Shown here: positions 2,395 to 18,424 of the stretch, one piece after another
How the letters are laid out: each line of letters opens with the position of its first letter
Numbering within the stretch: position 1 is the first letter of the stretch
Assembly: GCA_964438745.1 (NCBI GenBank)
Contig: CAYTLS010000001.1
Location: 1-24,899 of the forward strand
Direction: 5' to 3'
Length of the DNA stretch: 24,899 nt
Source of the DNA: an uncultured bacterium
GTDB lineage: Bacteria > Fidelibacterota > UBA2242 > JAFGTP01
The notes under the pieces: generated by a model
Database searches by the model: none
What the model saw: only the letters and a program-made list of their open reading frames with translations
What the model was told of the DNA's origin: nothing
Made by a program: the position numbers and the translations under genes

Positions 2395-3057
2395 TTATTT
2401 TGAGCGTCCGGTGTTTAATAAATTTATAATTTCATCGACCGTGTGACTCGTCTGCTGTATTCTTATATCATTGGCTTTGTAAGCATGATTAACAGTACCC
2501 AGCAATTCTTCATATTCGCGGCTGCGTTCCTTGCGCATTTCCGTCAGCAAATTTCTCAGCATGACCACGGTTTGCTTTTCATCCCTGGCTTGGTAGGATT
2601 CCAAAAGTTGGGTGGTGAGTTTATAATTTTCATACTGTATTTTTTCTAACATTTCAGGAGTAAGTTCCTGCTGGGGTGTGGCCGTTTCCCGGGAGGTTAG
2701 CAACGCGGTCTGAAAGGTGAATCCATCATCCGTCACTTCGATTTTTGTATTGAATAAGGCCATGATAAAAAGAATTACGGCAAAGCCCAGCCCAATCTTT
2801 TTAACCCTTCCAAAATCCGGTATTAATTTTTGGAGAATCGCTGCCCATGAACTCTCTTCTTGAGTGAATGTCAATTGTACCGGTACCGGTTCATCTTTCC
2901 ATTGATTGAGAAAGTCAGGAACAGTAACCAACTCTTGATATTTTTTCCGGCATTCGCCACAGTGCTGCAAATGCTCTTCTATTTTTTGTTTGTTATCCGG
3001 ACTGATCTCATCATAGATCATATCCATGATCAATCGTTTATAATCTTTACATTTCAT
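2395..3057 (-). CDS. Zinc-binding anti-sigma factor (ZAS / zf-HC2) with a single TM helix and a coiled-coil C-terminal region
   Basis: N-terminal C-x(26)-HLQHCGEC (HxxxCxxC) motif and TM segment IGLGFAVILFIMALF. Overlaps the sigma stop by 11 bp. Confidence 0.9.
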   Translation of the reverse strand: MKCKDYKRLIMDMIYDEISPDNKQKIEEHLQHCGECRKKYQELVTVPDFLNQWKDEPVPVQLTFTQEESSWAAILQKLIPDFGRVKKIGLGFAVILFIMALFNTKIEVTDDGFTFQTALLTSRETATPQQELTPEMLEKIQYENYKLTTQLLESYQARDEKQTVVMLRNLLTEMRKERSREYEELLGTVNHAYKANDIRIQQTSHTVDEIINLLNTGRSK

Positions 3058-3616
3058 AGCCGAGGTCCTCCTTTCCTATTCCCCATTTCACGATAACTTT
3101 ACGAAGAGCATTCAGTCCGTAATACATACGCGCTTTCACAGTATTGACCGGTTCATTGAGAATAGATGCAATCTCAGTGAACTTCAGGTTATGGTACTGT
3201 TTCATGATAATAACAACACGTTGTTCTCTGGGAATAGTTTGCAATGCTTGTTTTATTATTAAATTTGATGTCTGATCATTGGTTTTGAATTGATGTTCTT
3301 TTCCAGGATTAAATTCCAGGTCATCATTGATTGTTATTTCTGAAAAATTTATTTCCCTTTTCTTGCGGAAATAATTTTTACTCTGATTAATCGCAATAGA
3401 GTAAAGCCAGGATTTAAATTTTTCCCGCTCTTTCAACTTTTTTAATTTTTTATACATCAGGACAAAGGTCTGTTGCATGATATCCCCCGCCACTTCCCGG
3501 TCACCAATATATTTAAGCAGAAAATTAAACAGTTGGCCCTGGTGCTTTCTGACCAGAACATTGAAAGCGGAAATATCGCCTTCTAAATAGTTTGCTATTA
3601 ATTCTTCATTTTTCAT
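3047..3616 (-). CDS. ECF (sigma-70 family group 4) RNA polymerase sigma factor
   Basis: 189 aa; region 2 (GDISAFNVLV..DIMQQTF..FKSWLYSIAIN) and region 4 (QRVVIIMKQYHNLKFTEIASILNEPVNTVKARMYYG). Confidence 0.95.
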   Translation of the reverse strand: MKNEELIANYLEGDISAFNVLVRKHQGQLFNFLLKYIGDREVAGDIMQQTFVLMYKKLKKLKEREKFKSWLYSIAINQSKNYFRKKREINFSEITINDDLEFNPGKEHQFKTNDQTSNLIIKQALQTIPREQRVVIIMKQYHNLKFTEIASILNEPVNTVKARMYYGLNALRKVIVKWGIGKEDLGYEM

Positions 3617-4091: not shown

Positions 4092-5105
4092 ATGAAAATT
4101 TTAGTGACAGGTGGAGCCGGCTATATCGGAAGCCATACATCCGTGGAATTATTAAATGCCGGCCATGAGATCGTTATAGTTGATAATCTATCCAATAGTC
4201 ATAAAGAAGCTGTTAATCGCATTTCAGAAATTACCGGCAAAGAAGTGACATTTTATGAAATGAATATTCTCGATAAAACAGCTTTGGAAAAGGTCTTTGA
4301 AAAACACTCCTTTGATGCGGTCATTCATTTTGCCGCCCTCAAAGCGGTTGGTGAATCGGTTGAGAAACCGCTGCTCTATTATCACAACAATATTACCGGC
4401 TCAATTACGCTTTGCGATGTGATGGGAAAATATAATGTCAAAAACATTGTTTTTAGCTCCTCGGCAACAGTCTATGGCGATCCGGCAAGTGTACCGATCA
4501 AGGAGAATTTCCCTGTTTCAACGACCAATCCCTATGGCACTACGAAACTAACGATGGAAACCATTTTACGGGACTTGTATAAAGCCGATGAAAGATGGAA
4601 TATCGCTATTCTACGCTATTTTAATCCGATTGGCGCCCATTCATCGGGAAAAATCGGAGAAGATCCCAATGGCATTCCCAATAATCTAATGCCCTACATA
4701 TCACAGGTTGCCATTGGAAAACTTCAGCGACTGTCTGTTTTTGGTGATGATTATCCAACTGTAGACGGTACCGGCGTTCGGGACTATATCCATGTCACCG
4801 ACCTGGCTAAAGGCCATCTGGCCGCTCTGGACAAATTATCCCAGAATCCCGGTGAAGTCACTTACAACCTGGGAACCGGCAAGGGTTACAGTGTTCTGCA
4901 AATGATTACAGCTTTTGAAAAAGCATCCGGCAAAAAAGTACCTTACAAGATAGTTGACCGTCGCGCCGGCGATATTGCCGAATGCTGGGCAGATCCGGCA
5001 AAAGCAAAAACGGAACTGGGCTGGCAGGCCGAAATGGATCTTGACGATATGTGCCGGGACGCCTGGCGCTGGCAATCCAACAATCCCAAGGGCTATAACG
5101 ACTAA
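4092..5105 (+). CDS. galE: UDP-glucose 4-epimerase
   Basis: [10 protein letters not shown] Rossmann motif, FSSSATVYG, catalytic [23 protein letters not shown]; full length 337 aa. Confidence 0.97.
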
Positions 5106-5115
5106 GGCAAGAAAT

Positions 5116-5151
5116 AAGGTTAAGGTTAAGGTTAAGGTTGAGGTTGAGGTT
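5116..5151. repeat. Intergenic hexamer tandem repeat (AAGGTT)4(GAGGTT)2
   Basis: Six contiguous 6-bp units read directly between the galE stop and the hemolysin-III RBS. Confidence 0.95.
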
Positions 5152-5205
5152 CAAATACCTAAGGAAAAATTATAAAGAATTTTAATAAACTGTAAGGAAC
5201 AAATA

Positions 5206-5856
5206 ATGGATGGAAAAGATCCCATTAAATATGATAAAAAAGAAGAAATAGTCAATTCCATTAGTCACGGAATTGGCGCTGCCCTGGCAATTGCCGCTCT
5301 CGTTATACTAGTTGTTTTGGCAGTTAAAGAGGGCGATACCTGGCGGATAGTGAGTTTTTCGATCTATGGTAGTTCCATGATTCTCTTGTACCTCTCCTCC
5401 ACATTTTATCATGCATTTAGAAATCCAAGAGTAAAATCTATTTTCAAAGTATTTGATCATGCCTCGATTTATTTATTGATTGCCGGCACATACACCCCTT
5501 ATTTGCTGGTAAGTCTCCGTGGTCCCTGGGGATGGAGTTTATTCGGTGTCATCTGGGGACTGGCTTTTTTAGGCGTCATTTTTAAATTTTTCTTTGTCCA
5601 TCGATTCAACCGCATTTCTACATTTATCTATATTGCCATGGGCTGGTTAGTGATCATTGCCATGAAAGAAATGTTCAGCGTGTTGGATATCAGGGGAATT
5701 ATGTGGCTGTTTATCGGCGGATTATTTTATACAGCCGGAACGATTTTTTATCTGAATAAAACTGTTAAATACAGCCATGCGGTCTGGCATTTATTCGTAT
5801 TAATGGGCTCGATGTCCCACTTTTTTTCAATTCTTTTTTATGTACTGCCGAATTAA
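5206..5856 (+). CDS. Hemolysin III / PAQR family membrane protein (TrhA/YqfA-like)
   Basis: Motifs EEIVNSISHGIG, STFYH, FDHASIYLLIAGTYTP, HAVWHLFV; about 7 TM segments. Confidence 0.95.
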   Translation: MDGKDPIKYDKKEEIVNSISHGIGAALAIAALVILVVLAVKEGDTWRIVSFSIYGSSMILLYLSSTFYHAFRNPRVKSIFKVFDHASIYLLIAGTYTPYLLVSLRGPWGWSLFGVIWGLAFLGVIFKFFFVHRFNRISTFIYIAMGWLVIIAMKEMFSVLDIRGIMWLFIGGLFYTAGTIFYLNKTVKYSHAVWHLFVLMGSMSHFFSILFYVLPN

Positions 5857-5875: not shown

Positions 5876-7342
5876 TCAGGTACTAAGCCCCTGTTCACCA
5901 TCCAATTCATGGGCCAACTGTTTTGCCTCTTTCATCATGGGAGAATCCGGGTCCGCACCAGACCATAAACTAAAAAAATGATCCAGGTAAAATCCGGCTT
6001 TTTGGTCTTTTCCCTGTTGATGATAAAATTTGCTAATATTTAATAAGGAAACCGGATTATTGGGATTCTTCTCGAGAATTTCCAAAAACCCTTTTATCGC
6101 TTCATCAATCTTGCCGTCTCTCCCCAGCGAGGTATAATATTTATTCTCTAATTTTTCCGGATAAATATCTGATAGTATGGCGGCGGCAGTTTTAAAATTG
6201 TCTGCTGCAATGGCATAATTTCCCCGGGCAAAAGCCAATTCGCCCTGGAGTATCGCAATATATTTCACATAATGCTTATTTTTGCTCTGGTTTTTTGAAT
6301 AAAAATTATTGATCTCTTTTTCGGCCGCCCCATAATTATTATCTGCAATATCCAGGATGATTTTCATATAATTAGCTTCAAACCGGGAAATCTGCCCTTT
6401 TATGCGTTCATATTCTACCCGCATTTTATCGATTTCATTTAATTCATAATAAAGGTTGAACAGAAAATGATTGATCTGATGAATCTGCTGAACCGGGGAA
6501 TGAAGTTCTTTCGCGATTTCGGCATGACCAATCGCTTCATCATATTGTCCCAGGTATTTATAGGCATCGGCAATCTTCAAGTAGATTGTTGCGGACATAA
6601 ATTTATTCTGGTTCAGTAGTTCTTTCTTCGTATCAATCAGTTTATTTAATAATTTGATCGTTTCGTGATAACGGCCTGTGATCAGATAAAATTCCGCTAA
6701 ACTGTCCCAGGGGTTCAGAATATTAGGCGCCACTTCTAAATATTTGCGGAAATATTCGAGGGCGTCCCGATAATATCCCTGTAAAGCATAAGTATACCCA
6801 ACCATATTATAGGCCATGGCATATTGAGGATGATCTTCCAGAATATTAAAATATTCTTTGCGGGCCTTTGTATAATCAGCCTGCCGGAATGCTTGCTGAG
6901 CCTTGATCACTTTTGAATCCAGACGATTTGGAAATTCAGTTAGCAGAGAGTCTTCGATTCGTAAGGCTTTTTCCCGGTTAAATTGAAAATTGGCCCGGGC
7001 TCTTGCAATCAGCAATTGTTCAAACCGTGAGGCATTATGCATATTTTCGAAGGCTTTGTTCAGAAAATATTTGACACTATCCTTGCCTCCTGTATCATAA
7101 TAAATATCCGCCAGCATCAATGAAACGATCGCGAAATTGGAATCAGCCTGAAACGCGTCCAAATAGAGATCTTTGGCTTTTTCATGATTGAAAGCATTAT
7201 GAAAGTCTTTTCCTTTTAGAAAATTTTCTCGTGCTATTGATGATTCAGTTGTCCATTTTTCTTGCTTTGAACATCCGGCAGTGAATAATATGATAAGCAA
7301 TAATGCCGTCATTGTGTTGATATTTAACTTTATTTTTAACAT
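5876..7342 (-). CDS. TPR-repeat lipoprotein
   Basis: Hydrophobic signal with lipobox TAG-C24; multiple TPR-like helices (AMAYNMVGYTYALQGYYRDALEYFRKYLEVAP; SLAEFYLITGRYHETIK). Confidence 0.85.
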   Translation of the reverse strand: MLKIKLNINTMTALLLIILFTAGCSKQEKWTTESSIARENFLKGKDFHNAFNHEKAKDLYLDAFQADSNFAIVSLMLADIYYDTGGKDSVKYFLNKAFENMHNASRFEQLLIARARANFQFNREKALRIEDSLLTEFPNRLDSKVIKAQQAFRQADYTKARKEYFNILEDHPQYAMAYNMVGYTYALQGYYRDALEYFRKYLEVAPNILNPWDSLAEFYLITGRYHETIKLLNKLIDTKKELLNQNKFMSATIYLKIADAYKYLGQYDEAIGHAEIAKELHSPVQQIHQINHFLFNLYYELNEIDKMRVEYERIKGQISRFEANYMKIILDIADNNYGAAEKEINNFYSKNQSKNKHYVKYIAILQGELAFARGNYAIAADNFKTAAAILSDIYPEKLENKYYTSLGRDGKIDEAIKGFLEILEKNPNNPVSLLNISKFYHQQGKDQKAGFYLDHFFSLWSGADPDSPMMKEAKQLAHELDGEQGLST

Positions 7343-7454
7343 AATTTATTTTAAAGGAATAAAGGAAGAAATACAACCAATATTTTATTTTTAAACTAAA
7401 GGAATATTAATATATTTGTTGGATTAAAAAAATCCTTCAAACTGGAACAAAAAT

Positions 7455-8702
7455 ATGACACAGATCAGACAACTCGTAATGCTTCATTACTCAATACCAC
7501 CGGTGGTCGGCGGTGTGGAATTTATGCTGGAACCCCTGGCACAACTGTTTGCCAAAAATGGCTGGTATGTCTCTATGCTGACCGGGAAAGGCAATATTAA
7601 CAATAAAAATATTAAAACCACTAATATTCCGGAACTATTCCCCGGGAATCCTTACGTGAAAAATATGCAAAAAATGCTGACCAGCGGATCACTGCCGGAG
7701 AATTATGAACTGGCGGTAACAAATTTTGAAAAAAAACTGGTTACACATATTGGCGATATTGAAAATATCATTATCCATAACATGATGACGATGCCTTTTA
7801 ACTTGGTTGCTACTGAAGCATTACACAATTACATCAATAATAATCCTCATAAAAACTTTTATGTATGGATTCATGACATGGCCTGGCTAATGGAAGATTA
7901 TAAGCAGAATCTGTTCAATCGAAAACCATGGTCCATTCTTCGCACAGCCTCAAAAAACGTGACTTATATTACCATTTCCCGGTTTCGAAAAAAACAAGCG
8001 GTAAAGTTGTTGGAGTTACCTCCCAATAAAATTGAAATTATTCCAAACGGAATCAATCTCACCGGCTTTCTCAATCTACATGATTCCACCCATCAATTCC
8101 TGAACCGGCTCAGTGCCGAACAAATATCTAAAATGATCCTGGTACCTGTCCGGATATTACCACGAAAAAATCTGAATCGTACCATTGACATCATTGGAGC
8201 ATTAGCCGCCAGGGATACTAACATTACAGCTGTCATTGCCGGTTCACCTGATTTTTCTGACCCGGTTTCTATTGATTATTATACAACAATCAAAGAATAT
8301 GTCAAAGACCGTCAGTTAGAAAAAAATATTCTGTTTCTACATGAAATAGTAGAGGATATTCAGATTGGAGAAGTAGGCAACCGACAGATGGTTCACGATC
8401 TTTTTCAGATATCGATGATGGTCATGCTTCTGAGTAAAGATGAAGGCTTTGGTATGCCGTTACTGGAAGCCGGCATCGTGAAAACACCCCTGGTCCTGTC
8501 AGAACTTGAGGTTTTCCAGGAAATTTCCGGTGATAATGCAATCTATATTTCTGACCTGGAGCCGGTCAAAGAAAGCGCAGATAAGATCTACGAGGAGATT
8601 CTGGCCAATCCGCAAAAGAACCAAAGGATGTTCGGTAAAATCATGAAAAACTTCACCTGGGATTCGATCTGGAATACCTATATTCAGAAAATTTTCAAAT
8701 AA
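7455..8702 (+). CDS. Glycosyltransferase family 4 (GT-B, retaining)
   Basis: N-terminal PPVVGGVE, IIPNGIN, RILPRKN, and the E-x7-E motif EGFGMPLLE. Confidence 0.92.
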   Translation: MTQIRQLVMLHYSIPPVVGGVEFMLEPLAQLFAKNGWYVSMLTGKGNINNKNIKTTNIPELFPGNPYVKNMQKMLTSGSLPENYELAVTNFEKKLVTHIGDIENIIIHNMMTMPFNLVATEALHNYINNNPHKNFYVWIHDMAWLMEDYKQNLFNRKPWSILRTASKNVTYITISRFRKKQAVKLLELPPNKIEIIPNGINLTGFLNLHDSTHQFLNRLSAEQISKMILVPVRILPRKNLNRTIDIIGALAARDTNITAVIAGSPDFSDPVSIDYYTTIKEYVKDRQLEKNILFLHEIVEDIQIGEVGNRQMVHDLFQISMMVMLLSKDEGFGMPLLEAGIVKTPLVLSELEVFQEISGDNAIYISDLEPVKESADKIYEEILANPQKNQRMFGKIMKNFTWDSIWNTYIQKIFK

Positions 8703-8729
8703 TCGACTTCTTCATTTCGATAAAAAAGG

Positions 8730-10463
8730 CTAGTGTCTGGATATTGGCAAATCAATAATAAATTCCGTGCCCACATTTTTTTCACTTTTGACATCCAGTT
8801 TTCCATTATGTTGCATGACAATATGCTTGACAATGGATAATCCCAGACCGGTGCCTCCCATCTTCCGTGATCTGGACTTATCAACGACATAAAAACGCTC
8901 AAAAATCCGCCCCAGATGTTTCGACGGTATACCAATGCCTGTATCTTTAATAATGATTCTTAATTTATTCTTTATTTTGTGGCTGGAAACGTAAATCCCT
9001 CCCTGATCCGTATACTTGGCAGAATTATCAATCAGGTTGATAAACAACTGCTCCAGTTTAAAGCGGTCGCCATCAATTTCTTTCACCTCAGGATCAAGCG
9101 TTACTGCAAAAGTAAGCTTTTTGGATTGGATTTTCATATCGACAACTTTTTCCACATCATCGATTAATTCTTCCAGATTAACCTTTTCAATATCCAGTTT
9201 AGACTTACGGGATTCAAGATTGGACAGTACCAGCAAATCCTTGACAATATAGATCAAGCGATCAGTATGTTTTTCCAGAATTTCAAAGTAATGCTTTTTC
9301 GTTTCGTCTGTCTCTTCATCCTGCAGCGTTTCTACAAAACCTTTTATTGCTGTCAGTGGGGTGCGCAATTCATGGCTCACATTGGAAACAAAATCCTTTT
9401 TTATCTGCTCCAGTTGCTTCATATCTGTAATATTTTTCAAACTCAGGATAATATCCCCTTTTGATTCAACTTTGGCCAGGGACACGATAAAATCTTTGTT
9501 ATTCCATTTGATAGTTTCCATAGCGACGGTTTCGTTTTTCAGGACTTTTTCAATCACGCGCTTAAAATATTTCCCCTTAAATATTTCCGAATAATTTTTC
9601 CCTACCAGGTCTGTTTCAGTGATTCTGACCATTTCAGGATTTGCCAGGATTATGTTTCCCTGGTTGTTTAATACGCAAATTCCTTCTTTAATGGATTCCA
9701 GCAAGCAATTCAGCGTTTCCTTTTCACTTTCAATACGGTTAAAAAGGCTTTGAATTCTCGACGTCATCTCATTGAAACTATCAGCAAAGGTACGCAGATC
9801 GCCGCGACTATTAATATCAACCCGGGTAGAAAGATTGCCATTGGAAACGCTGAGAGCGGCATTTTTTAATTTTGTGATCGGCGTGGAAAAATTTCGACTC
9901 ATAAAAATAGCTACTATCAGGGCAATAAAAAAAACCAAATAACTGGCTCGCAATAGTTTGGTTCTGAGGTCACTGATAATTTCATTAATATTTTCAAGGA
10001 ACATACTCGTTCGGATGACGCCGATAATTTCATTCTCTTTTTTAAGAGGCTGGGCCACATACAACATTTCTTTTTTTAAGGTACTACTGTAACGGAGGGA
10101 AGATCTGACTTCTTTAGTTTGAAAAGCATAATCGATCTCATCACGATAACGATGGTTTTCCATTTTTTCAGGATTGTGTTCAGAATCGCCCAGCACAACC
10201 CCCATTGTATCGACAACCGTGATTCGAATATTAAGTTTATTTCCCTTTTCTTTCACAAACCGGTCCAGATTGCCGTCCTCGAAATGTTGTACCACCTGAT
10301 CCGATAGCGCCAGATTTACTTTTTTTAATTCTGTTTTTAAAATGTTGATATAATTACTCTTGGTGACCCGAAAAGTAGTAAAAAGAGTCAATATCAGCAG
10401 GAGTAGAATTATAAAGAAAAATGCTGAAAATATTTTTAAAAAGAAGCTGGATATTCTGGTCAT
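8730..10463 (-). CDS. phoR: PhoR-like sensor histidine kinase (TM-periplasmic-TM-HAMP-PAS-HisKA-HATPase)
   Basis: FVSNVSHELRTPLTAIKGFVETL, NLIDNSAKY, DTGIGIP, RIFERFYVVDKSRSRKMGGTGLGLSIVKHIV. Co-oriented with an OmpR-family regulator and a porin. Confidence 0.85.
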   Translation of the reverse strand: MTRISSFFLKIFSAFFFIILLLLILTLFTTFRVTKSNYINILKTELKKVNLALSDQVVQHFEDGNLDRFVKEKGNKLNIRITVVDTMGVVLGDSEHNPEKMENHRYRDEIDYAFQTKEVRSSLRYSSTLKKEMLYVAQPLKKENEIIGVIRTSMFLENINEIISDLRTKLLRASYLVFFIALIVAIFMSRNFSTPITKLKNAALSVSNGNLSTRVDINSRGDLRTFADSFNEMTSRIQSLFNRIESEKETLNCLLESIKEGICVLNNQGNIILANPEMVRITETDLVGKNYSEIFKGKYFKRVIEKVLKNETVAMETIKWNNKDFIVSLAKVESKGDIILSLKNITDMKQLEQIKKDFVSNVSHELRTPLTAIKGFVETLQDEETDETKKHYFEILEKHTDRLIYIVKDLLVLSNLESRKSKLDIEKVNLEELIDDVEKVVDMKIQSKKLTFAVTLDPEVKEIDGDRFKLEQLFINLIDNSAKYTDQGGIYVSSHKIKNKLRIIIKDTGIGIPSKHLGRIFERFYVVDKSRSRKMGGTGLGLSIVKHIVMQHNGKLDVKSEKNVGTEFIIDLPISRH

Positions 10464-13485: not shown

Positions 13486-13944
13486 ATACCAATCCGGCAC
13501 CGGTCGTTTGGTCCATTTGGCAAACCTGGATTTATCATAAATATAAAAATTTCGATAGCCCTGAACCGGGTTTTCCCTGACTTTAAATTCGTCAGGCATT
13601 GCTTGGGGGAATTCTGTTAATCCGATATCTCTTATTGGCGGTTCCGGAAGTGTCTTGATAATGCTGGCAGATTTGTGATCCTTAATTTTTTCATAACGAT
13701 ATTTATATTCTTCATTCAGCGCCAGCCCCAATTTCCGTAACCACTTCCAGTTGGATAAGGATAATCCAGCCCAGAGTGTACAGGGATGTTTCCGGTGCGT
13801 TGATTTATAAGGTGCAACTATCCCATTCTCATTGAGGACGGTACAAAGCATTTGCGCATACTCCAATATCATTTTGATGACATGCTGGTCGGCATGGTAT
13901 GCTACACATTTTTCAATATCCTTATCTAAAACAAAAATATTCAT
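13468..13944 (-). CDS. Pyrimidine dimer DNA glycosylase / T4 endonuclease V family protein
   Basis: MNIFVLD..HADQHVIKMILEYAQML (compare T4 DenV LADQHLMAEY), YKSTHRKHPCTLWA, FPQAMPDEFK, YRNFY..KSRFAKWTKR. Confidence 0.85.
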   Translation of the reverse strand: MNIFVLDKDIEKCVAYHADQHVIKMILEYAQMLCTVLNENGIVAPYKSTHRKHPCTLWAGLSLSNWKWLRKLGLALNEEYKYRYEKIKDHKSASIIKTLPEPPIRDIGLTEFPQAMPDEFKVRENPVQGYRNFYIYDKSRFAKWTKRPVPDWYKKTKP

Positions 13945-13993
13945 GAAAAAAGATAATTGTTTATTTTAAATAAAAAAAACAGAAGTTTAATCT

Positions 13994-14008
13994 GCCGATA
14001 CCTTTCCT
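13994..14008. repeat. 15-bp exact intergenic repeat, copy 1 (GCCGATACCTTTCCT)
   Basis: Identical to 17591-17605. On the minus strand it fills most of the spacer of TTGAAG-N17-TAAACT upstream of the glycosylase gene. Confidence 0.7.
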
Positions 14009-14071
14009 TCAAAAACTATTGGGATTAACCTGAATATCAGTCTATGAATTATTAAGATCGATAGCTAATAT

Positions 14072-14101
14072 AAAAAAAGAGCAGCCCATAATGAGCTGCT
14101 C
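14072..14101 (-). terminator. Intrinsic terminator for the 14131-14712 gene
   Basis: Minus strand GAGCAGC-U-CAU-u-AUG-G-GCUGCUC followed by a U-tract; the G-U wobble works only on the minus strand. Confidence 0.85.
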
Positions 14102-14130
14102 CGTGAGTAATCATGTTATTAATTGGTAAG

Positions 14131-14712
14131 TTAGTAAAGTTGAATGACGGCTAACTCATCATTATACCCTGATCCTTCAATTTCTTTTGAAACATCTTTG
14201 ACCTGGTCGTTTAGTTTCATGCCTTCTGCAAACAATGAGGAAGTATTTATTGTAGCATAGACTGTGCTGATAGAGTATGGATGTTCCAGTGTTAATGGTA
14301 GTCTTGCGGCAACAGCAGTTGAAATTCCCTGACGACAAGCATCCGTATTATTGGCAATACTGAAGACACTGTTATTCCGGCAATATTCTGCAACTTCCTT
14401 GACATCGGCACTCTCAGTAACAAGAATTACATCCGGCTTATTGATGGGAAGATCGGTGCTGCATGTGATCTTTATCAGGGTTGCGGCTCCAACTCTTTGG
14501 CCATTGTAAATAACCAGTTCTTCAGCTACATATTGATCACCGATAACATGAACTGTCACTTCATCCCTGGTCTGTAATGTTTCATTCAAAGCAACAAGCG
14601 ACATTGCACCCAATGCAAATCTTTTGTTTGTAAGGCGAAAATCACCTGCAAAAGTCTGTACAGTCAGTGTTAAGACAAGTACTAAAACCAGTGTTAAATT
14701 TAATTTCTTCAT
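14131..14712 (-). CDS. Exported YfiR/HmsC (DUF4154)-like protein, paralog A
   Basis: Signal peptide ending TFA. Pattern VHVIG..VAEEL..RVG..LP..PDVILV..YCRNNSVFSI..G..IN..AEGM resembles DUF4154. RBS GAAAGGGA. Confidence 0.65.
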   Translation of the reverse strand: MKKLNLTLVLVLVLTLTVQTFAGDFRLTNKRFALGAMSLVALNETLQTRDEVTVHVIGDQYVAEELVIYNGQRVGAATLIKITCSTDLPINKPDVILVTESADVKEVAEYCRNNSVFSIANNTDACRQGISTAVAARLPLTLEHPYSISTVYATINTSSLFAEGMKLNDQVKDVSKEIEGSGYNDELAVIQLY

Positions 14713-14754
14713 AACAATTCCCTTTCGTTTATCTTATTAATTTATTTACAGACT

Positions 14755-14785
14755 TGAGACTTACAACCTGATTAAAAGTTGTCAA
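14755..14785 (-). promoter_or_regulatory. Putative ECF promoter for paralog A (TGACAACTTTTA; CAACTT-N15-GTCTCA)
   Basis: The block is conserved upstream of paralog B and resembles the promoter upstream of the ECF sigma gene. Confidence 0.55.
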
Positions 14786-14837
14786 AAAACTTTTATTTTT
14801 TTTAATTTTTTTTCGGTTTAATAAATTGTTTATAAAC

Positions 14838-14868
14838 AAAAAAGCAACCTTATAAAAGATTGCTTTTT
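14838..14868. terminator. Intrinsic terminator between the two paralogs
   Basis: AAAAAGCAA-c-CTT..AAG-a-TTGCTTTTT, with A/T runs on both sides. Confidence 0.75.
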
Positions 14869-14896
14869 AATTTTTATGCCTTCTCTTTTTGAGCCT

Positions 14897-14919
14897 AAAC
14901 AACTGCCAAACTTACCAAA
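14897..14919. repeat. 23-bp exact intergenic repeat, copy 1 (AAACAACTGCCAAACTTACCAAA)
   Basis: Identical to 15865-15887. Confidence 0.95.
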
Positions 14920-14980
14920 TAAAACATATTATTTATACTCATTGGAAAAGGAATCAAATTTTCAAAAATATAATTAAAGA

Positions 14981-15562
14981 CTAATAAAGTTGAACCATTA
15001 CAAGATCTTTTTCAAACTTGTTTTCTTCAACCGGTTTAGCAATATCCATTACCTGGGGATTGAAAACCATACCTTCAGCAAACAAGGCTTCTTTATTAAT
15101 TTTGGCAAAAACAGCGGTCATTGAATATTTATTTTCATTTGGTGCTGTTTTTCGGGTTACGATCGCAGAGGAAAGTCCTTTTTGGCATAACTCAGAAACA
15201 TTGGTCACACTGAAAACTTTATTATCGCGACAATACCGAATAGCTTGTTTACATTTGGCTTCATCACAAACCAAAAGGACATCCGGATTTTCACTCGGCA
15301 GTTCATCACCAGCAGTGATGGAATTCAATTTAATAAATCCAACTCTTTGGTCAAGAAATATTTTCAACTCTTCAGCAACATCGACATTGCCTAATACAAA
15401 AACATCCAGTGATTCTTTTCCCTGAAGTGTTTCATTTAAAGCACATAATGACATAGCCCCAAGTGCAAATCTTTCATTGGTAATTTTAGGGCTAATTGCA
15501 AAGACCTGAGTACTTAAAACCAGTATCAGTGTCATTCCGAACAAAACATTCAATATCTTCAT
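14981..15562 (-). CDS. Exported YfiR/HmsC (DUF4154)-like protein, paralog B
   Basis: 193 aa, aligns without gaps to paralog A (89/193 identical by manual count). Signal peptide ending VFA. Confidence 0.65.
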   Translation of the reverse strand: MKILNVLFGMTLILVLSTQVFAISPKITNERFALGAMSLCALNETLQGKESLDVFVLGNVDVAEELKIFLDQRVGFIKLNSITAGDELPSENPDVLLVCDEAKCKQAIRYCRDNKVFSVTNVSELCQKGLSSAIVTRKTAPNENKYSMTAVFAKINKEALFAEGMVFNPQVMDIAKPVEENKFEKDLVMVQLY

Positions 15563-15599
15563 TTTTAATGCCTTTCCTTTATTTCAATAAATACAGGCT

Positions 15600-15630
15600 T
15601 ACGACTTATCATGATTTGTAAAAGTTGTCA
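15600..15630 (-). promoter_or_regulatory. Putative ECF promoter for paralog B (TGACAACTTTTA; CAACTT-N16-GTCGTA)
   Basis: Shares the 12-mer TGACAACTTTTA and TAAGTC..AAG.CTGTA with the paralog A upstream region. Confidence 0.6.
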
Positions 15631-15864
15631 TCAAAAGTAAATTTTTTATACTTTATTAATCCGCTTATTAAATTGTAAAAAATCATAATTGATGTCACAC
15701 CTTATACTTAACAATAACACAACAGCATTAAAACTTAAAAGGAATAAAAACAGTAATAAGGTAATAAATAAATAGAATGGGGAATCAACGTTCAAATAAA
15801 TAGCCGGAAAGTGGAATTGTTTTTTGATTTTAGATTAATTTTAATTATTTTAATACTGAGTCCC

Positions 15865-15887
15865 AAACAACTGCCAAACTTACCAAA
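15865..15887. repeat. 23-bp exact intergenic repeat, copy 2
   Basis: Identical to 14897-14919; 968 bp apart. Confidence 0.95.
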
Positions 15888-15893
15888 AAGTTG

Positions 15894-15918
15894 AAAGCCT
15901 TCATTTATTGAAGGCTTT
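15894..15918. terminator. Intrinsic terminator downstream of the 15951 gene
   Basis: Perfect 10-bp stem AAAGCCTTCA / TGAAGGCTTT with a 5-nt loop. Confidence 0.8.
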
Positions 15919-15950
15919 GGGATTTTTAGGGGTTAACTTTTGTGTTTTTA

Positions 15951-16928
15951 TTAAAATTTATCAACTGAATAGTCTTCATGACTGATCCAGATCACGACGT
16001 GATACCGGCCATTATTTTGGCTCAATCCTACCTGGATACTTTTCTTATCAATCTTCCATTCCGCTGTCCATTCGATAAATTCTTCTTCTAATTCTGATTT
16101 TTCAATAAATTTTGTATCTGTTAACCCATGCAATCGGTTATAATAATCAATAATATTTTCCCAGTTTTCTTTAAGTTCCGAGTTGTATTGTGTGCCCAAA
16201 TAACCGTTACTAACCAGGTTGATCAAGTATAACTTATCATTTTTGTAGACCGGTTTGAGATTATATTTATAGTCACCCAAATTCACTTTATAAATGGGGT
16301 TGTTGATCATTAATTCTTCGACTTTGATCCGTGGATCCTCTTCAAATTTTAAATTTGCTTCTTCTATAGTATCGCCAAAATTGATAAATCCAAAAGCCTT
16401 TTGCGCCAGTTTTTTATCCTTGGTTTGTTTTTTTTCCCGTTCTTTTTCCGCCTTTTTTTCTGCTGCCCGTTTAATATCTTTTTTCATGATCTGTTCGCGC
16501 AATTCAGAATAATTATCTATAATCTCACCATTTTTGAAAATAAGAACCGGTCCATTATCCTCAATATCAGCAATATAAAATTTGATTCCATAGGTTTTTA
16601 AGGGAAATAGCATAAGCGATAGTGTATCAGTCGTGGCTGTATATTCGGCCACAAAATCATTGAATAATTTTCGTGTGTCTTTGGGATTATAAACAGCCTG
16701 CCGGTTCAGTTTTACACTGATACTGCGATTAAATTTGTAGGGAAGACGATCCAGATTTGAATTATCATAAAGATAAGATTTTTCCAAAACGGATTCCCAT
16801 TTTGGTAATACTTCGTCAGCAAAATGCTCATCGACATATTTTTTGTAAAATGAACTTTGATAAAAAACAAAGGCCAATGCGCTTAAGACTAATATAGATA
16901 TCAAAATAAATTTGAATAAGGTTTTCAA
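15951..16928 (-). CDS. Membrane-anchored hypothetical protein (about 325 aa); start reassigned from 17123 to TTG 16928
   Basis: Strong RBS GAGGAG 8 nt before an in-frame TTG. The new start gives MKTLFKFILISILVLSALAFVFY (signal/anchor) and removes a 190-bp same-strand overlap with the upstream gene. Confidence 0.75.
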   Translation of the reverse strand: MKTLFKFILISILVLSALAFVFYQSSFYKKYVDEHFADEVLPKWESVLEKSYLYDNSNLDRLPYKFNRSISVKLNRQAVYNPKDTRKLFNDFVAEYTATTDTLSLMLFPLKTYGIKFYIADIEDNGPVLIFKNGEIIDNYSELREQIMKKDIKRAAEKKAEKEREKKQTKDKKLAQKAFGFINFGDTIEEANLKFEEDPRIKVEELMINNPIYKVNLGDYKYNLKPVYKNDKLYLINLVSNGYLGTQYNSELKENWENIIDYYNRLHGLTDTKFIEKSELEEEFIEWTAEWKIDKKSIQVGLSQNNGRYHVVIWISHEDYSVDKF

Positions 16929-16932
16929 AATA

Positions 16933-17460
16933 TTAACTCCTCTTTCTGTTAAAAAATCCAAGAATAATTCCCAACATAACTGACCATAGAGCAGCCAGAC
17001 CGATTTGATAATTTTTCGGTAAAGAAAAAGTAATCGTATGCGCCGGTATCCAGAACCAAAGCAAAGAATATAACCCTTTATCGATATTGTCCCAGTTTTT
17101 ATTTTTCTTGAATAAATTATCAAGCACCCGGTGAAAAATCACAAGAAATAAACCAAATTGTAAATTCATGGAAACTGAAAGAGCAAAACTTCTCATCAAT
17201 CCGGTCATTGGTGGTAAATATTGATGTGCAATTAAGTGATCAATAAATCCCTGGTATCCGGCAAAAGCATATTTGATCAGAATAGCCAGGATTCCCCACT
17301 CCGTCATTTTCCAGAGCATTTCCAGACCGGAAAAAGGATTATCGATTTTTCGTCCTACAATCCACCGAGAGATATATTCTCCCAGAGTTCCCAAAATAGC
17401 AAATTGTATAATCGCAGCCAAGATTCCATGGGTCTTTACAAATGTCAGGTACCATTCCAT
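16933..17460 (-). CDS. Mpv17/PMP22 family membrane protein
   Basis: About 4 TM helices. C-terminal LLWFWIPAHTITFSLP..QIGLAALWSVMLGIIL matches the Mpv17 W.P.Q/H..NF..P pattern. RBS AAGGA. Confidence 0.75.
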   Translation of the reverse strand: MEWYLTFVKTHGILAAIIQFAILGTLGEYISRWIVGRKIDNPFSGLEMLWKMTEWGILAILIKYAFAGYQGFIDHLIAHQYLPPMTGLMRSFALSVSMNLQFGLFLVIFHRVLDNLFKKNKNWDNIDKGLYSLLWFWIPAHTITFSLPKNYQIGLAALWSVMLGIILGFFNRKRS

Positions 17461-17590
17461 TTTATTTTCCTTATGTTTTCGCTAAAAGCTACAATTGTTT
17501 TAAGAAAAATCGAAAAAAAAATTACCGCCGAATAAAATAAAATGAGTAAATCTGCATTGTTTCTAAAAATATGACCGATGCCCATTTTGC

Positions 17591-17605
17591 GCCGATACCT
17601 TTCCT
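17591..17605. repeat. 15-bp exact intergenic repeat, copy 2
   Basis: Identical to 13994-14008. On the minus strand it lies within TTAACA-N18-CAAAAT upstream of the Mpv17 gene. Confidence 0.7.
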
Positions 17606-17695
17606 GCTGTTAAAAACCTTGAAAATTCATGACTAATTCAGGCTAATATATTGGCGCAACAATTTTTTCATGAGAAAACAAACCATTTTTTTTCA

Positions 17696-17724
17696 TTGCA
17701 TAGAGAACCATAACCGCCTAAATT
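17696..17724 (+). promoter_or_regulatory. Sigma-70 type promoter for the DtxR/MntR gene
   Basis: TTGCAT-N17-TAAATT, ending 45 nt before the ATG at 17770. Confidence 0.6.
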
Positions 17725-17769
17725 ACGATATTAACATTTGTTTTATGAATAATACAACCAGGGATTAAT

Positions 17770-18213
17770 ATGAGTACACATTGGCAGAAAATTGAAGCGG
17801 GAGTATTGAAACACAGTAGTGTTCATCATCTCATGGCAGTGCATCAATTATTGGATGAGCAGGGCTATGCCCGCACAACAGATATATCCAAAAAATTAAA
17901 TATTACAAGGGGTAGTGTCTCTATTACATTGAGCCGTCTTGAAGAAAATAATTATATAAAATTCGATGCCAATAAACATATCAGCCTGTCCCAAAAAGGG
18001 CAAAAGATTGTTGATGATGTCCTTCAAAAGCGAAAAATTCTATCTGAATTTTTAATGGAATCTTTGCAAATGGAAAAAAATGAGGCCGTAAATTGTGCTT
18101 GCCGAATGGAACATGTCATATCCCAGGAAGTGTTGAGAAGGCTGGAAATTTTCAATGACTTCTGCCGGGAAAATGTCTCCTCTTTACCGGAATTCAAACA
18201 AATACCCCTTTAG
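17770..18213 (+). CDS. DtxR/MntR family metal-dependent transcriptional regulator (no FeoA domain)
   Basis: wHTH GYARTTDISKKLNITRGSVSITLSRL, ISLSQKG, dimerisation motif ACRMEH; 147 aa. Confidence 0.9.
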   Translation: MSTHWQKIEAGVLKHSSVHHLMAVHQLLDEQGYARTTDISKKLNITRGSVSITLSRLEENNYIKFDANKHISLSQKGQKIVDDVLQKRKILSEFLMESLQMEKNEAVNCACRMEHVISQEVLRRLEIFNDFCRENVSSLPEFKQIPL

Positions 18214-18260
18214 AATTTGCTGTCATACTTTCCTGTAATATTAAAAAAAATGACAATGGG

Positions 18261-18291
18261 ACAAGGGATTGCAGTTCCTTGTTAACTTTTT
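18261..18291 (+). terminator. Probable terminator for the DtxR/MntR gene
   Basis: ACAAGGGA / TTCCTTGT stem (one G-U on the plus strand), 6-nt loop, followed by taacTTTTT. Confidence 0.5.
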
Positions 18292-18424
18292 ACTAATCAG
18301 GTATCCTGCTCCTGGAAAAAATAATTCCCATTATCCGGTTTCGTAGATAATCTGCGTTATATGTTCCCGACAATTATGAGAATTGTCCACAACAGGACAA
18401 CTGAACCTGTCAGGGAAGGTAAGT

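Follow-up and report, generated by a model that had tools for sequence, protein, structure and literature searches.

Among periplasmic repressors that gate the activity of a membrane sensor, YfiR is the model case: it represses a diguanylate cyclase through direct binding, and binds YfiN and YfiB. To our knowledge, everything known about its function comes from the YfiBNR and HmsCDE operons, and we know of no description that connects periplasmic repressors of the YfiR type with ECF signalling. The DNA considered here is a stretch of 24,899 nucleotides (the window) from an uncultured marine bacterium, the assembly of which spans 2.9 Mb and is 83% complete. It carries two tandem genes, parA and parB, that a sequence-only reading had assigned by eye to the YfiR/DUF4154 family, and it raises the question of what such proteins do where no cognate sensor is encoded beside them.

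Both genes are ORFs on the minus strand (parA, 14131..14712; parB, 14981..15562), each encoding a 193-residue, probably exported protein of the same divergent DUF4154/YfiR-like subfamily. These coordinates were confirmed, and the gap-free alignment at about 46% identity described earlier was reproduced by BLASTP (89 of 193 identities, E = 2e-62). Read from the sequence, the N-termini consist of MKK or MKI, a hydrophobic stretch and an FA/G or FA/I junction; a lipobox Cys is absent. They read as Sec signal peptides with a typical n-h-c region, comprising residues 1–22 in parA (MKKLNLTLVLVLVLTLTVQTFA followed by G; 14647..14712, minus strand) and in parB (MKILNVLFGMTLILVLSTQVFA followed by I; 15497..15562, minus strand). 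In the AlphaFold model of parA, the N-terminal helix (residues 3–21) stands apart from the domain. Both mature proteins are probably located in the periplasm.

The by-eye family call is correct but remote, in that the paralogs are homologous to YfiR/DUF4154 yet fall under the Pfam threshold. Against PF13689 (DUF4154), parA scored 15.7 bits (E = 0.016) and parB 15.4 bits (E = 0.021), both below the gathering cut-off of 24.9 bits; the domain was pre-annotated in one of 12 close homologs, and an NCBIfam search of the two proteins returned no match. The family profile (A1) collected 152 proteins at E <= 1e-3, and 102 of the 117 aligned relatives matched PF13689 at E <= 1e-3. Alignment of this profile by hhalign with canonical DUF4154 members (34 of 37 being PF13689) gave a probability of 99.9% (E = 5e-35, 171 columns), at only ∼20% identity between the paralogs and the canonical proteins. 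A PDB sequence search with the close-family profile did not find YfiR, and the wide profile found it at E ∼1.7 only, collinear across the whole domain. AlphaFold with only 13 close homologs yielded an unusable model (pLDDT 50); the AF2 model rebuilt from the 117-sequence alignment reached a pLDDT of 90.5. The best seven PDB fold matches of this model are YfiR chains (target-normalised TM 0.67–0.71, probability 1.0), led by 4yna, 4yn7 and 4zhu (E = 6e-5, TM 0.69–0.71). The structural similarity to YfiR that had been proposed as a check is thus present in the model (TM ∼0.7), with the fold match not being independent of the homology because the alignment behind the model consists mostly of DUF4154 members.

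Cys111, Cys126 and the terminal Q191-L192 are invariant in 13 family members, the last residue being Y or F, and so is most of the N-terminal block R31-F32-x-x-G35-A36-x-S38-L39-x-A41-L42-N43-x-T45; the earlier claim for the cysteines and this block therefore stands. Helix alpha1 (RFALGAMSLCALNETLQ), near-invariant in the paralogs, is unlike the canonical DUF4154 consensus. The conserved QLY tail that had also been described holds at the genus level but not beyond it, where distant subfamily members end otherwise, and the idea that it serves as a protease or PDZ signal is weakened, because the tail is unconserved outside the genus and lies in a beta-strand of the model. YfiR contains a structural disulfide (Cys145–Cys152) and a redox pair (Cys71–Cys110) (PMC4655355). 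In the profile alignment to 4zhu_A, only Cys145 has a Cys counterpart, Cys126, and the parA residues at the positions of Cys152, Cys71 and Cys110 are Ala133, His55 and Pro93. A disulfide between Cys111 and Cys126 is predicted.

The subfamily is small, divergent and confined to a few related Marinimicrobia/Fidelibacterota genomes. The pair is retained in all four genomes of the genus, and a third lineage holds three copies. parA is the faster-evolving, derived copy, its clade being nested inside a parB-like grade in the tree, and parB is the more conserved, ancestral-like copy, with orthologs that are 77–82% identical. Both genes are under purifying selection (dN/dS 0.08–0.10), and on a value of about 0.09 the view that they are pseudogenes or relics was rejected. 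Homologs consistently found in standard operons, with degenerate copies in the window, are what the sequence-only reading had named as contradicting it; this is not the case here, as the same dN/dS speaks against degeneration.

The two genes are single-gene transcription units, each with its own promoter and terminator. A scan for hairpins followed by a T-run returned five sites against 1.1 expected. On the minus strand, intrinsic terminators follow parA (14078..14102; an 11-bp stem with six GC pairs, then TTTTTTT), parB (14839..14868; stem sequence conserved in sister genomes) and the upstream 325-aa gene, which is thereby separated from parB (15894..15918; conserved, with compensatory changes in L005). 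These three terminator-like hairpins make each paralog a transcription unit of its own, so that the earlier claim of a separate promoter and terminator is upheld for both genes; the promoters are not sigma-70-like, being of the ECF type. A 26-nt non-coding element is also present in two minus-strand copies, at 14894..14919 (TTTGGTAAGTTTGGCAGTTGTTTAGG on the gene strand; ∼190 nt upstream of parA) and 15862..15887 (∼310 nt upstream of parB). The copies are identical at 25 of 26 positions, the first is invariant in the sister genomes, and the 17-mer core has only two occurrences in the 2.9-Mb assembly. A Bacteroidetes-type box, TAnnTTTG, which was considered for this element, is only ∼2-fold enriched at −50 to −40 upstream of genes here. 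No known RNA family was found by Rfam in 13900–18300.

The ECF-type promoters, both on the minus strand, are TGACAACTTT-N13-AGTCTCA for parA (14755..14784), with the −35 box 71 nt before the ATG, and TGACAACTTT-N14-AGTCGTA for parB (15600..15630). Their blocks are invariant in a four-genome alignment, and the surrounding intergenic DNA has diverged around these footprints. Of 13 subfamily genes, spread over seven genomes and three family-level lineages, 12 carry the general form GACAACYTT-N13/14-RTCNTA between −64 and −76 relative to the ATG. Sigma-70 promoters were rejected: a consensus scan gave no site at the conserved position, where the −10 region is RTCNTA. The same motif precedes an ECF sigma gene on another contig (G000:C2) and its orthologs in seven genomes. 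The promoters of the paralogs are conserved in relatives and match the autoregulated promoter of the C2 sigma gene itself, and their spacing to the start codon is plausible.

In a genome-wide PWM scan, the three best sites were those of parB (score 25.0), the sigma gene and parA (22.6). Seven of the eight best sites are correctly oriented and 12–42 nt ahead of the start of an ORF. Five of the ORFs concerned are neither the sigma gene nor a paralog; four of them start with a signal-peptide-like or membrane-spanning segment, as read from their sequences, and the fifth (C310, 93 aa) is of doubtful standing. Envelope proteins and efflux components make up the rest of the candidate regulon. Promoter-like sites were not enriched genome-wide over the reversed-sequence control (8 versus 19 PWM matches at >=18 bits, and likewise with a strict regular expression). 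The regulon claim is hence solely one of position, rank and conservation, because the total number of matches does not exceed that in the control. Each of the seven genomes with the subfamily, these being the genomes checked, also has an ortholog of the sigma factor. A second ECF sigma gene, located in the window itself (3047–3616), has a looser version of the motif, so the C2 sigma factor is not the only candidate for these promoters. A conserved ECF-type promoter, which had not been recognized before, thus appears to place both genes under an envelope-stress sigma factor from another part of the genome, on which their expression would depend.

With regard to a partner, neither a diguanylate cyclase nor a histidine kinase nor a TonB receptor is encoded next to the pair in the window, the nearest kinase being a PhoR-like gene (8730–10463). 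A gene for a YfiN-type sensor with a CHASE8/PAS-like periplasmic domain is absent from the neighbourhood of the pair in the window, as is an OmpA-like (YfiB-type) lipoprotein among the window ORFs scanned. No sensor was found beside the subfamily genes of six other genomes (∼0.8 to 10 kb on each side). The orphan status therefore holds, in that no sensor gene adjoins the subfamily in any of the seven genomes. The earlier statement that no partner is adjacent is right for the window but needs correcting for the three sister genomes, in which the same syntenic block includes a TonB-dependent receptor at a distance of ∼3 kb; only the present genome lacks it. In this phylum, the outgroup DUF4154 genes closest to the subfamily belong to TonB receptor–DUF4154–MCP/HAMP sensor operons, and the best explanation is that the subfamily left such an operon.

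The reading that we prefer is that parA and parB are stress-induced, trans-acting periplasmic proteins of the YfiR fold, each with its own ECF promoter served by the C2 sigma factor; we place slightly better than even confidence in this reading as a whole. Envelope stress would release the C2 sigma factor, which would then transcribe both genes. The products would be exported as Sec-dependent, single-domain YfiR/HmsC (DUF4154)-fold proteins. As periplasmic binding proteins they would then engage, in trans, a partner in the membrane or the periplasm, in a manner pictured like that of YfiR on YfiN and YfiB.

The alternatives differ mainly in the partner that they propose. The first gives the earlier proposal of modulators or decoys a definite target: the stress-induced paralogs may bind the periplasmic domain of the sole CHASE8 sensor in the assembly (contig C106, CHASE8-HAMP-PAS), or compete with its cognate DUF4154 protein, and so couple stress to that pathway. 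Binding of YfiR-family proteins to the periplasmic domain of a YfiN-type sensor is established (PMC4655355), the paralogs keep the YfiR fold in the model, and this one sensor gene lies directly downstream of the canonical DUF4154 gene of the genome. In the only GGDEF protein (C46), as read from its sequence, just a short segment separates two hydrophobic stretches at the N-terminus, and a large periplasmic domain is not apparent. However, the low identity to canonical DUF4154 proteins weighs against this proposal, the distinct helix alpha1 argues for a different binding surface, and further sensors may be missing from an assembly of this completeness. We regard it as unlikely, although it fares better than the proposals that follow.

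Alternatively, the paralogs, once induced, might feed back on the ECF system itself: by binding products of the C2 operon, either the anti-sigma factor (at its extracytoplasmic part) or the toastrack proteins, they would adjust the stress response. Besides the ECF sigma factor, this operon encodes a zf-HC2/HEAT anti-sigma factor, the C-terminal HEAT domain of which is large, and two toastrack proteins that are exported (DUF4097 and Toast_rack_N). Such feedback would fit the presence of the sigma ortholog in every genome with the subfamily, and, the sigma gene aside, no sites match its promoter better than those of the two paralogs. The argument is, however, purely analogical, being modelled on RseB, which acts on RseA in the E. 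coli sigma-E system, and we know of no YfiR-family protein that binds an anti-sigma factor. Feedback of this kind is accordingly considered improbable.

A further proposal looks to the neighbouring genes, with the paralogs as parts of a DtxR-regulated metal-uptake cluster comprising a 175-aa membrane protein, the 325-aa anchored protein and, in the sister genomes, the TonB-dependent receptor. The order TBDR / DtxR-like <> 175 aa / 325 aa / parB / parA is conserved within the genus, and the outgroup DUF4154 genes directly follow TonB receptor genes. Against this, a terminator lies between the 325-aa gene and parB, each paralog has its own ECF promoter, and both paralogs remain under purifying selection in this genome, from which the receptor has been lost. 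Beyond the genus the neighbours of the subfamily genes vary, and the association with the DtxR/TBDR cluster is absent in G097, G073 and G144. These observations leave the proposal with little credibility. In relatives, ACAATTGT recurs at the promoters of the 175-aa gene, dtxR and the TBDR gene; it was rejected as a DtxR-like repressor operator, its genome-wide occurrences being mostly within ORFs, and no regulon can be claimed for it.

Equally doubtful is a non-signalling role, in which the paralogs would bind a small ligand or envelope component through a half-periplasmic-binding-protein fold during stress repair, independently of any sensor: the envelope and efflux character of the other candidate regulon members would suit it, and YfiR is followed in the fold matches by single-domain 'substrate-binding proteins' from Rhodothermus marinus (5z6v, 6k1x) and by ABC substrate-binding domains, but their TM (0.45–0.57) is lower than that of the YfiR matches, a ligand site cannot be singled out, and the most conserved surface elements match the protein-binding ones of YfiR (PMC4655355).

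The preferred reading, of stress-induced proteins acting in trans, concerns a subfamily in which the fold was kept, the operon lost, the cysteines rewired, duplication repeated and, as it appears, a stress-sigma promoter acquired. If it is true, the YfiR fold is able to serve as a free-standing, trans-acting module. The more specific idea that YfiR-fold proteins were recruited as the output or feedback of an ECF envelope-stress pathway, binding the anti-sigma/toastrack module or another envelope sensor in trans, is offered as a speculation with rather poor prospects. For an ECF sigma factor of an uncultured phylum, the analysis provides a candidate regulon that is concrete and open to testing; the practical value is modest until the partner is found.

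In comparison with known systems, the paralogs share with YfiR of P. aeruginosa and E. coli and with HmsC of Yersinia pestis a product of ∼170–190 aa with a single alpha/beta domain, which in the paralogs is probably exported as well. They differ from YfiR in their ∼14% identity to it and sub-threshold Pfam scores, in lacking Cys71, Cys110 and Cys152 and having a subfamily-specific Cys111 instead, in a 12-residue insertion (about residues 139–150) and in a C-terminal extension of 10–17 residues. Their genes are monocistronic, tandemly duplicated and preceded by an ECF-type promoter and, in contrast to YfiBNR, have no adjacent gene for a YfiN-type sensor or YfiB-type lipoprotein. The TonB receptor–DUF4154–sensor operons (L023–L026; G000 C106) contain members of the same family (E = 1e-13 to 1e-24 against the subfamily profile); there, however, a DUF4154 gene encoding 166–174 aa is flanked, at a distance of just a few bases, by genes for a TonB-dependent receptor and for a HAMP/MCP or CHASE8 sensor, whereas the paralogs in the window stand alone. 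The likeness to RseB of the E. coli sigma-E system is one of regulatory logic: in both cases an exported protein, predicted to be so for the paralogs, is encoded by a gene with the sigma factor's own type of promoter, which would permit feedback on the pathway, but the fold is unrelated and the paralog genes lie outside the sigma operon.

The two paralogs lie on the minus strand of the window as ORFs of 193 codons each, parA at 14131-14712 and parB at 14981-15562, and their products align end to end without gaps at 46% identity (BLASTP, E 2e-62), in agreement with the sequence-only reading. Their N-termini, inspected by eye, carry a basic-hydrophobic segment that contains no cysteine and runs up to FA followed by G or I; this reads as a Sec signal peptide, and the products are predicted to be soluble, exported proteins. 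Terminators consisting of a hairpin and a T run were found after parA (14102..14078), after parB (14868..14839) and after the upstream 325-codon gene (15918..15894), with five such sites in a scan of the region versus 1.1 expected, so that each paralog forms a separate transcription unit, as had been proposed. Values of dN/dS of 0.08-0.10 for parA and for parB (three ortholog pairs each) indicate strong purifying selection, and neither gene is a decaying copy. The two proteins are unlike at 54% of positions with the conserved blocks common to both, which may fit either diverged specificities or a heterodimer.

The assignment to the YfiR/DUF4154 family had originally been made by eye. Direct Pfam scans gave matches to PF13689 (DUF4154) of 15.7 and 15.4 bits (E about 0.02), below the Pfam cut-off of 24.9 bits, and an NCBIfam scan of the paralogs gave no match. 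When 1.84 billion representatives were searched exhaustively with HMMER, a profile built from the 13-sequence close-family alignment recovered 152 proteins at E<=1e-3; just five of these reached E<=1e-30, and the close subfamily is therefore tiny. PF13689 was matched at E<=1e-3 by 102 of 117 aligned wider relatives, and profile-profile comparison with 37 aligned canonical members, of which Pfam assigns 34 to PF13689, gave a probability of 99.9% and an E-value of 5e-35 over 171 columns. An AlphaFold model from the 13 close sequences alone was useless (pLDDT 50), and the model obtained with the wider relatives reached a pLDDT of 90.5 and a pTM of 0.83. When this model was compared with the PDB using Foldseek, the first seven places were taken by YfiR chains (4yna, 4yn9, 4yn7, 4zhu and 4zhy), with E-values down to 6e-5, probability 1.0 and target-normalised TM scores of 0.67-0.71. 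The next meaningful hits were to single-domain 'substrate-binding proteins' from Rhodothermus marinus and to ABC substrate-binding domains, in keeping with the reported relationship between YfiR and a single lobe of the periplasmic binding proteins (PMC4655355). Most sequences in the alignment used for the model are DUF4154 members, so the homology and the fold match are not independent lines of evidence. With all evidence taken together, the family call is safe, the paralogs being remote members.

Only 12 relatives, 193-204 aa long and 46-85% identical, were recovered when 5.8 billion proteins were searched by word index, and those with names come from Marinimicrobia/Fidelibacterota metagenome-assembled genomes. 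The conservation first noted between the two paralogs extends to all 13 close sequences, in which Cys111 and Cys126 are invariant, as are a large part of the helix-alpha1 block RFALGAMSLxALNETLQ, the motifs PDV and YC, and a C-terminal QL followed by Y or F as the last residue. Alignment with hhalign revealed a 12-residue insertion at about residues 139-150, containing the likewise invariant E143, Y146 and S147, and a C-terminus running 10-17 residues past the canonical end. The QLY tail had been suggested to be a protease or PDZ-recognition signal. It is kept among the 13 close sequences only, more distant subfamily members ending in ...EILAFYTAQNNELK, ...EEILAMK or ...DIIYAKQSFGSLE, and residues 187-191 form a beta-strand in the AlphaFold model; this suggestion is thereby weakened, and the conserved property of the C-terminus, as judged from the alignments and the model, is a short amphipathic strand rather than a terminal recognition tripeptide. 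Three tandem copies were also observed in a different genus, at 6812-9494 of locus L035 (genome G097, contig C263). In a maximum-likelihood tree the parA clade (support 98/99) is nested within a grade of parB-like sequences and the three G097 copies group as an amplification of their own, which implies at least two tandem duplication events.

The conserved promoter and the candidate regulon described here are additions to the sequence-only reading. Upstream of both genes lies TGACAACTTT, followed after 13-14 nt by AGTCTCA (parA) or AGTCGTA (parB), with the first box 67-71 nt before the ATG. ECF sigma promoters such as the sigma-E and sigma-W consensus sequences have the geometry AAC, 17-18 nt, GTC, and the parA and parB promoters, as read from their boxes, are of this type. 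The form G(A/G)CA(A/T)C(Y)(T/A)(T/A)-N13/14-(A/T)(G/A)TC(N)(T/A)A was found at -64 to -76 in 12 of 13 subfamily genes from seven genomes, including the distant G097, G073 and G144. The sole exception is the second G097 copy, which lies 76 nt downstream of another copy and is probably co-transcribed with the first; the first and third copies carry the promoter. In four-genome alignments of both intergenic regions the boxes are invariant, with most of the surrounding sequence diverged in sister locus L005. The intergenic regions also hold a 26-nt non-coding element, TTTGGTAAGTTTGGCAGTTGTTTRGG, on the minus strand at 14894-14919 and 15862-15887 (25/26 identical), about 190 nt upstream of parA and about 310 nt upstream of parB. 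Within the 2.9-Mb assembly the 17-mer core of the element is confined to these two copies, and three sister genomes have it unchanged; L005 and G144 carry a related copy within the 5' leader, directly after the ECF -10 box. Part of the element, TAAGTTTG, conforms to the Bacteroidetes-type -7 box TAnnTTTG.

The ECF-type promoter motif of the paralogs, as TGACAACCTTTTGAAATTAGTTCAATCATA, is also found immediately before an ECF sigma gene of the same assembly (contig C2, 9261-9818), and it precedes the orthologs of this gene in seven of seven genomes examined, in the conserved form TGACAACYTT-N13-WATCAWA. It is common for an ECF sigma factor to drive transcription of its own operon, and a motif before the sigma gene is therefore the usual signature for assigning a regulon. 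The operon (C2:9220-12998, locus L054) encodes the ECF sigma factor, a zf-HC2 anti-sigma factor with a C-terminal HEAT-repeat domain, a DUF4097 toastrack protein and Toast_rack_N, and by this predicted content is a module of envelope-stress type. A position weight matrix scan of the whole assembly placed parB (25.0 bits), the sigma gene (22.9) and parA (22.6) as the top three sites. Of the eight best sites, seven are correctly oriented and positioned 12-42 nt ahead of an ORF start; the four of these ORFs other than parA, parB and the sigma gene encode further candidate members, namely an uncharacterised exported protein (C317), a membrane protein of the Yip1 family (C279), a membrane-anchored protein of 361 aa with no annotation (C507) and an exported DUF2807 protein (C35), and the eighth site (C310) lies 78 nt before a 93-aa ORF. 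The total motif count showed no excess over a reversed-sequence control, and the evidence for the regulon consists of the rank, position and conservation of the sites. The window's own ECF sigma gene (3047-3616) has a looser AAAACTT-N15-GTCTAA directly before its ATG, below the matrix threshold, which favours the C2 sigma factor for the parA and parB promoters; cross-recognition by the window sigma factor is possible.

In the mechanism proposed, envelope stress would release the C2 sigma factor, which would transcribe the monocistronic parA and parB; the exported products, probably stabilised by a Cys111-Cys126 disulfide, would then bind a periplasmic partner, as YfiR binds YfiN and YfiB. YfiR does so via helix alpha1 and its C-terminal elements (PMC4655355), and in the subfamily it is the corresponding regions that show the highest conservation. 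We lean modestly towards this mechanism as a whole, with the remaining weight spread over the alternatives for the partner given below, and the putative trans-acting role is plausible.

An arrangement of receptor, DUF4154 gene and sensor had been taken as the norm, and it was indeed seen for the nearest non-subfamily relatives in the phylum (166-173 aa), whose genes lie a few bases from TonB-dependent receptor and HAMP/MCP sensor genes on either side. The subfamily as a whole has left this arrangement, which upholds the orphan status claimed for the pair. In three other Fidelibacterota loci (L024, L025 and L026) the order is TonB-dependent receptor, DUF4154 and a methyl-accepting chemotaxis protein (HAMP plus MCPsignal), the last being neither a diguanylate cyclase nor a kinase; this gene order points to YfiR-like control of chemoreceptors there. 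The genome listing that had been proposed, in an assembly of 2.93 Mb (590 contigs, 83% complete), gave four DUF4154 matches: parA, parB and genes on C106 and C76. A candidate partner is the single CHASE8 sensor of the assembly, a CHASE8-HAMP-PAS protein on C106 whose gene is interrupted by the contig end and lies directly downstream of a canonical DUF4154 gene of its own (174 aa, 87 bits). The C76 gene (6724-7499) follows an FtsX-like permease/ABC ATPase pair and encodes a long protein (>258 aa) with an N-terminal extension, running off the contig end; this type is kept in three sister genomes as 279-282-aa ORFs. The sole GGDEF protein (C46, 572 aa) shows two hydrophobic segments close to the N-terminus, separated by only a short gap, and no large periplasmic domain is apparent from its sequence; its gene lies directly downstream of another ECF sigma/anti-sigma-like pair (C46:3512-6480). 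A second candidate partner is the anti-sigma/toastrack module of the C2 operon, which would amount to feedback, and a partner within the ECF pathway would considerably raise the interest of the case. Alternatively, the proteins may have no protein partner and bind a ligand or the envelope.

The membrane proteins encoded nearby are a further candidate for the partner. On one side, the pair is flanked by a 158-aa gene (weakly pyrimidine-dimer-excision-like in orthologs), a DUF523/DUF1722 gene and, further out, a PhoB-like regulator, a porin and a PhoR-like kinase; on the other lie a 325-aa N-terminally anchored protein, a 175-aa membrane protein (16933-17460) and a divergently transcribed DtxR-family repressor gene. 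The 175-aa protein has only weak Pfam matches at E<=1, to 7TMR-DISM_7TM and DUF1129, and the scan listed no hit to Mpv17/PMP22. The claim that no TonB receptor is adjacent is true of this genome, in which 211 nt (18214-18424) separate the repressor from the next gene, but not of its sisters (L001, L005 and L006), where the same block includes a TonB-dependent receptor of 759-767 aa, placed between the genes for the DtxR-like repressor and SBP_bac_3. No receptor ortholog was found elsewhere in the assembly, the best tblastn matches being about 27%-identical paralogs, and the absence is a recent loss. In L003 and L005 a small His-rich membrane protein of 125-131 aa is also present beside the repressor, and the pattern across these genomes looks like stepwise loss of a metal-uptake module. 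The exact 15-mer GCCGATACCTTTCCT (13994-14008 and 17591-17605) is shared by the upstream regions of the 158-aa glycosylase-like gene and of the gene for the 175-aa membrane protein. The motif AAAACAATTGT, with palindromic core ACAATTGT, was observed in the window at 17461-17769 and in L001 at 4957-5507 and 5964-6107; it recurs in the promoter regions of the genes for the 175-aa protein and the DtxR-like repressor, and in relatives also in that of the TonB receptor gene, which suggests an operator of the DtxR-like repressor. A genome-wide search for it gave occurrences mostly within ORFs, and no regulon could be defined. In G097 the three tandem copies lie between a his operon and an ABC exporter, and the single copies of G073 and G144 have different surroundings; near the copies in these genomes no homolog was found of the 175-aa gene, the 325-aa gene or the DtxR-like gene. 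The association is thus limited to the genus, and the metal-uptake cluster is regarded as a neighbour rather than a partner.

The paralogs are a variant of a known family, and their cysteines differ from those of YfiR. In a HMMER alignment to chain 4zhu_A, parA Cys126 aligns with YfiR Cys145, one half of a disulfide reported to be essential for folding (PMC4655355), whereas YfiR Cys152 is matched by the invariant Ala133, and Cys71 and Cys110 by His55 and Pro93. Cys111 of the subfamily has no counterpart in canonical DUF4154 members. We infer that the disulfide has been rewired in the subfamily to Cys111-Cys126.
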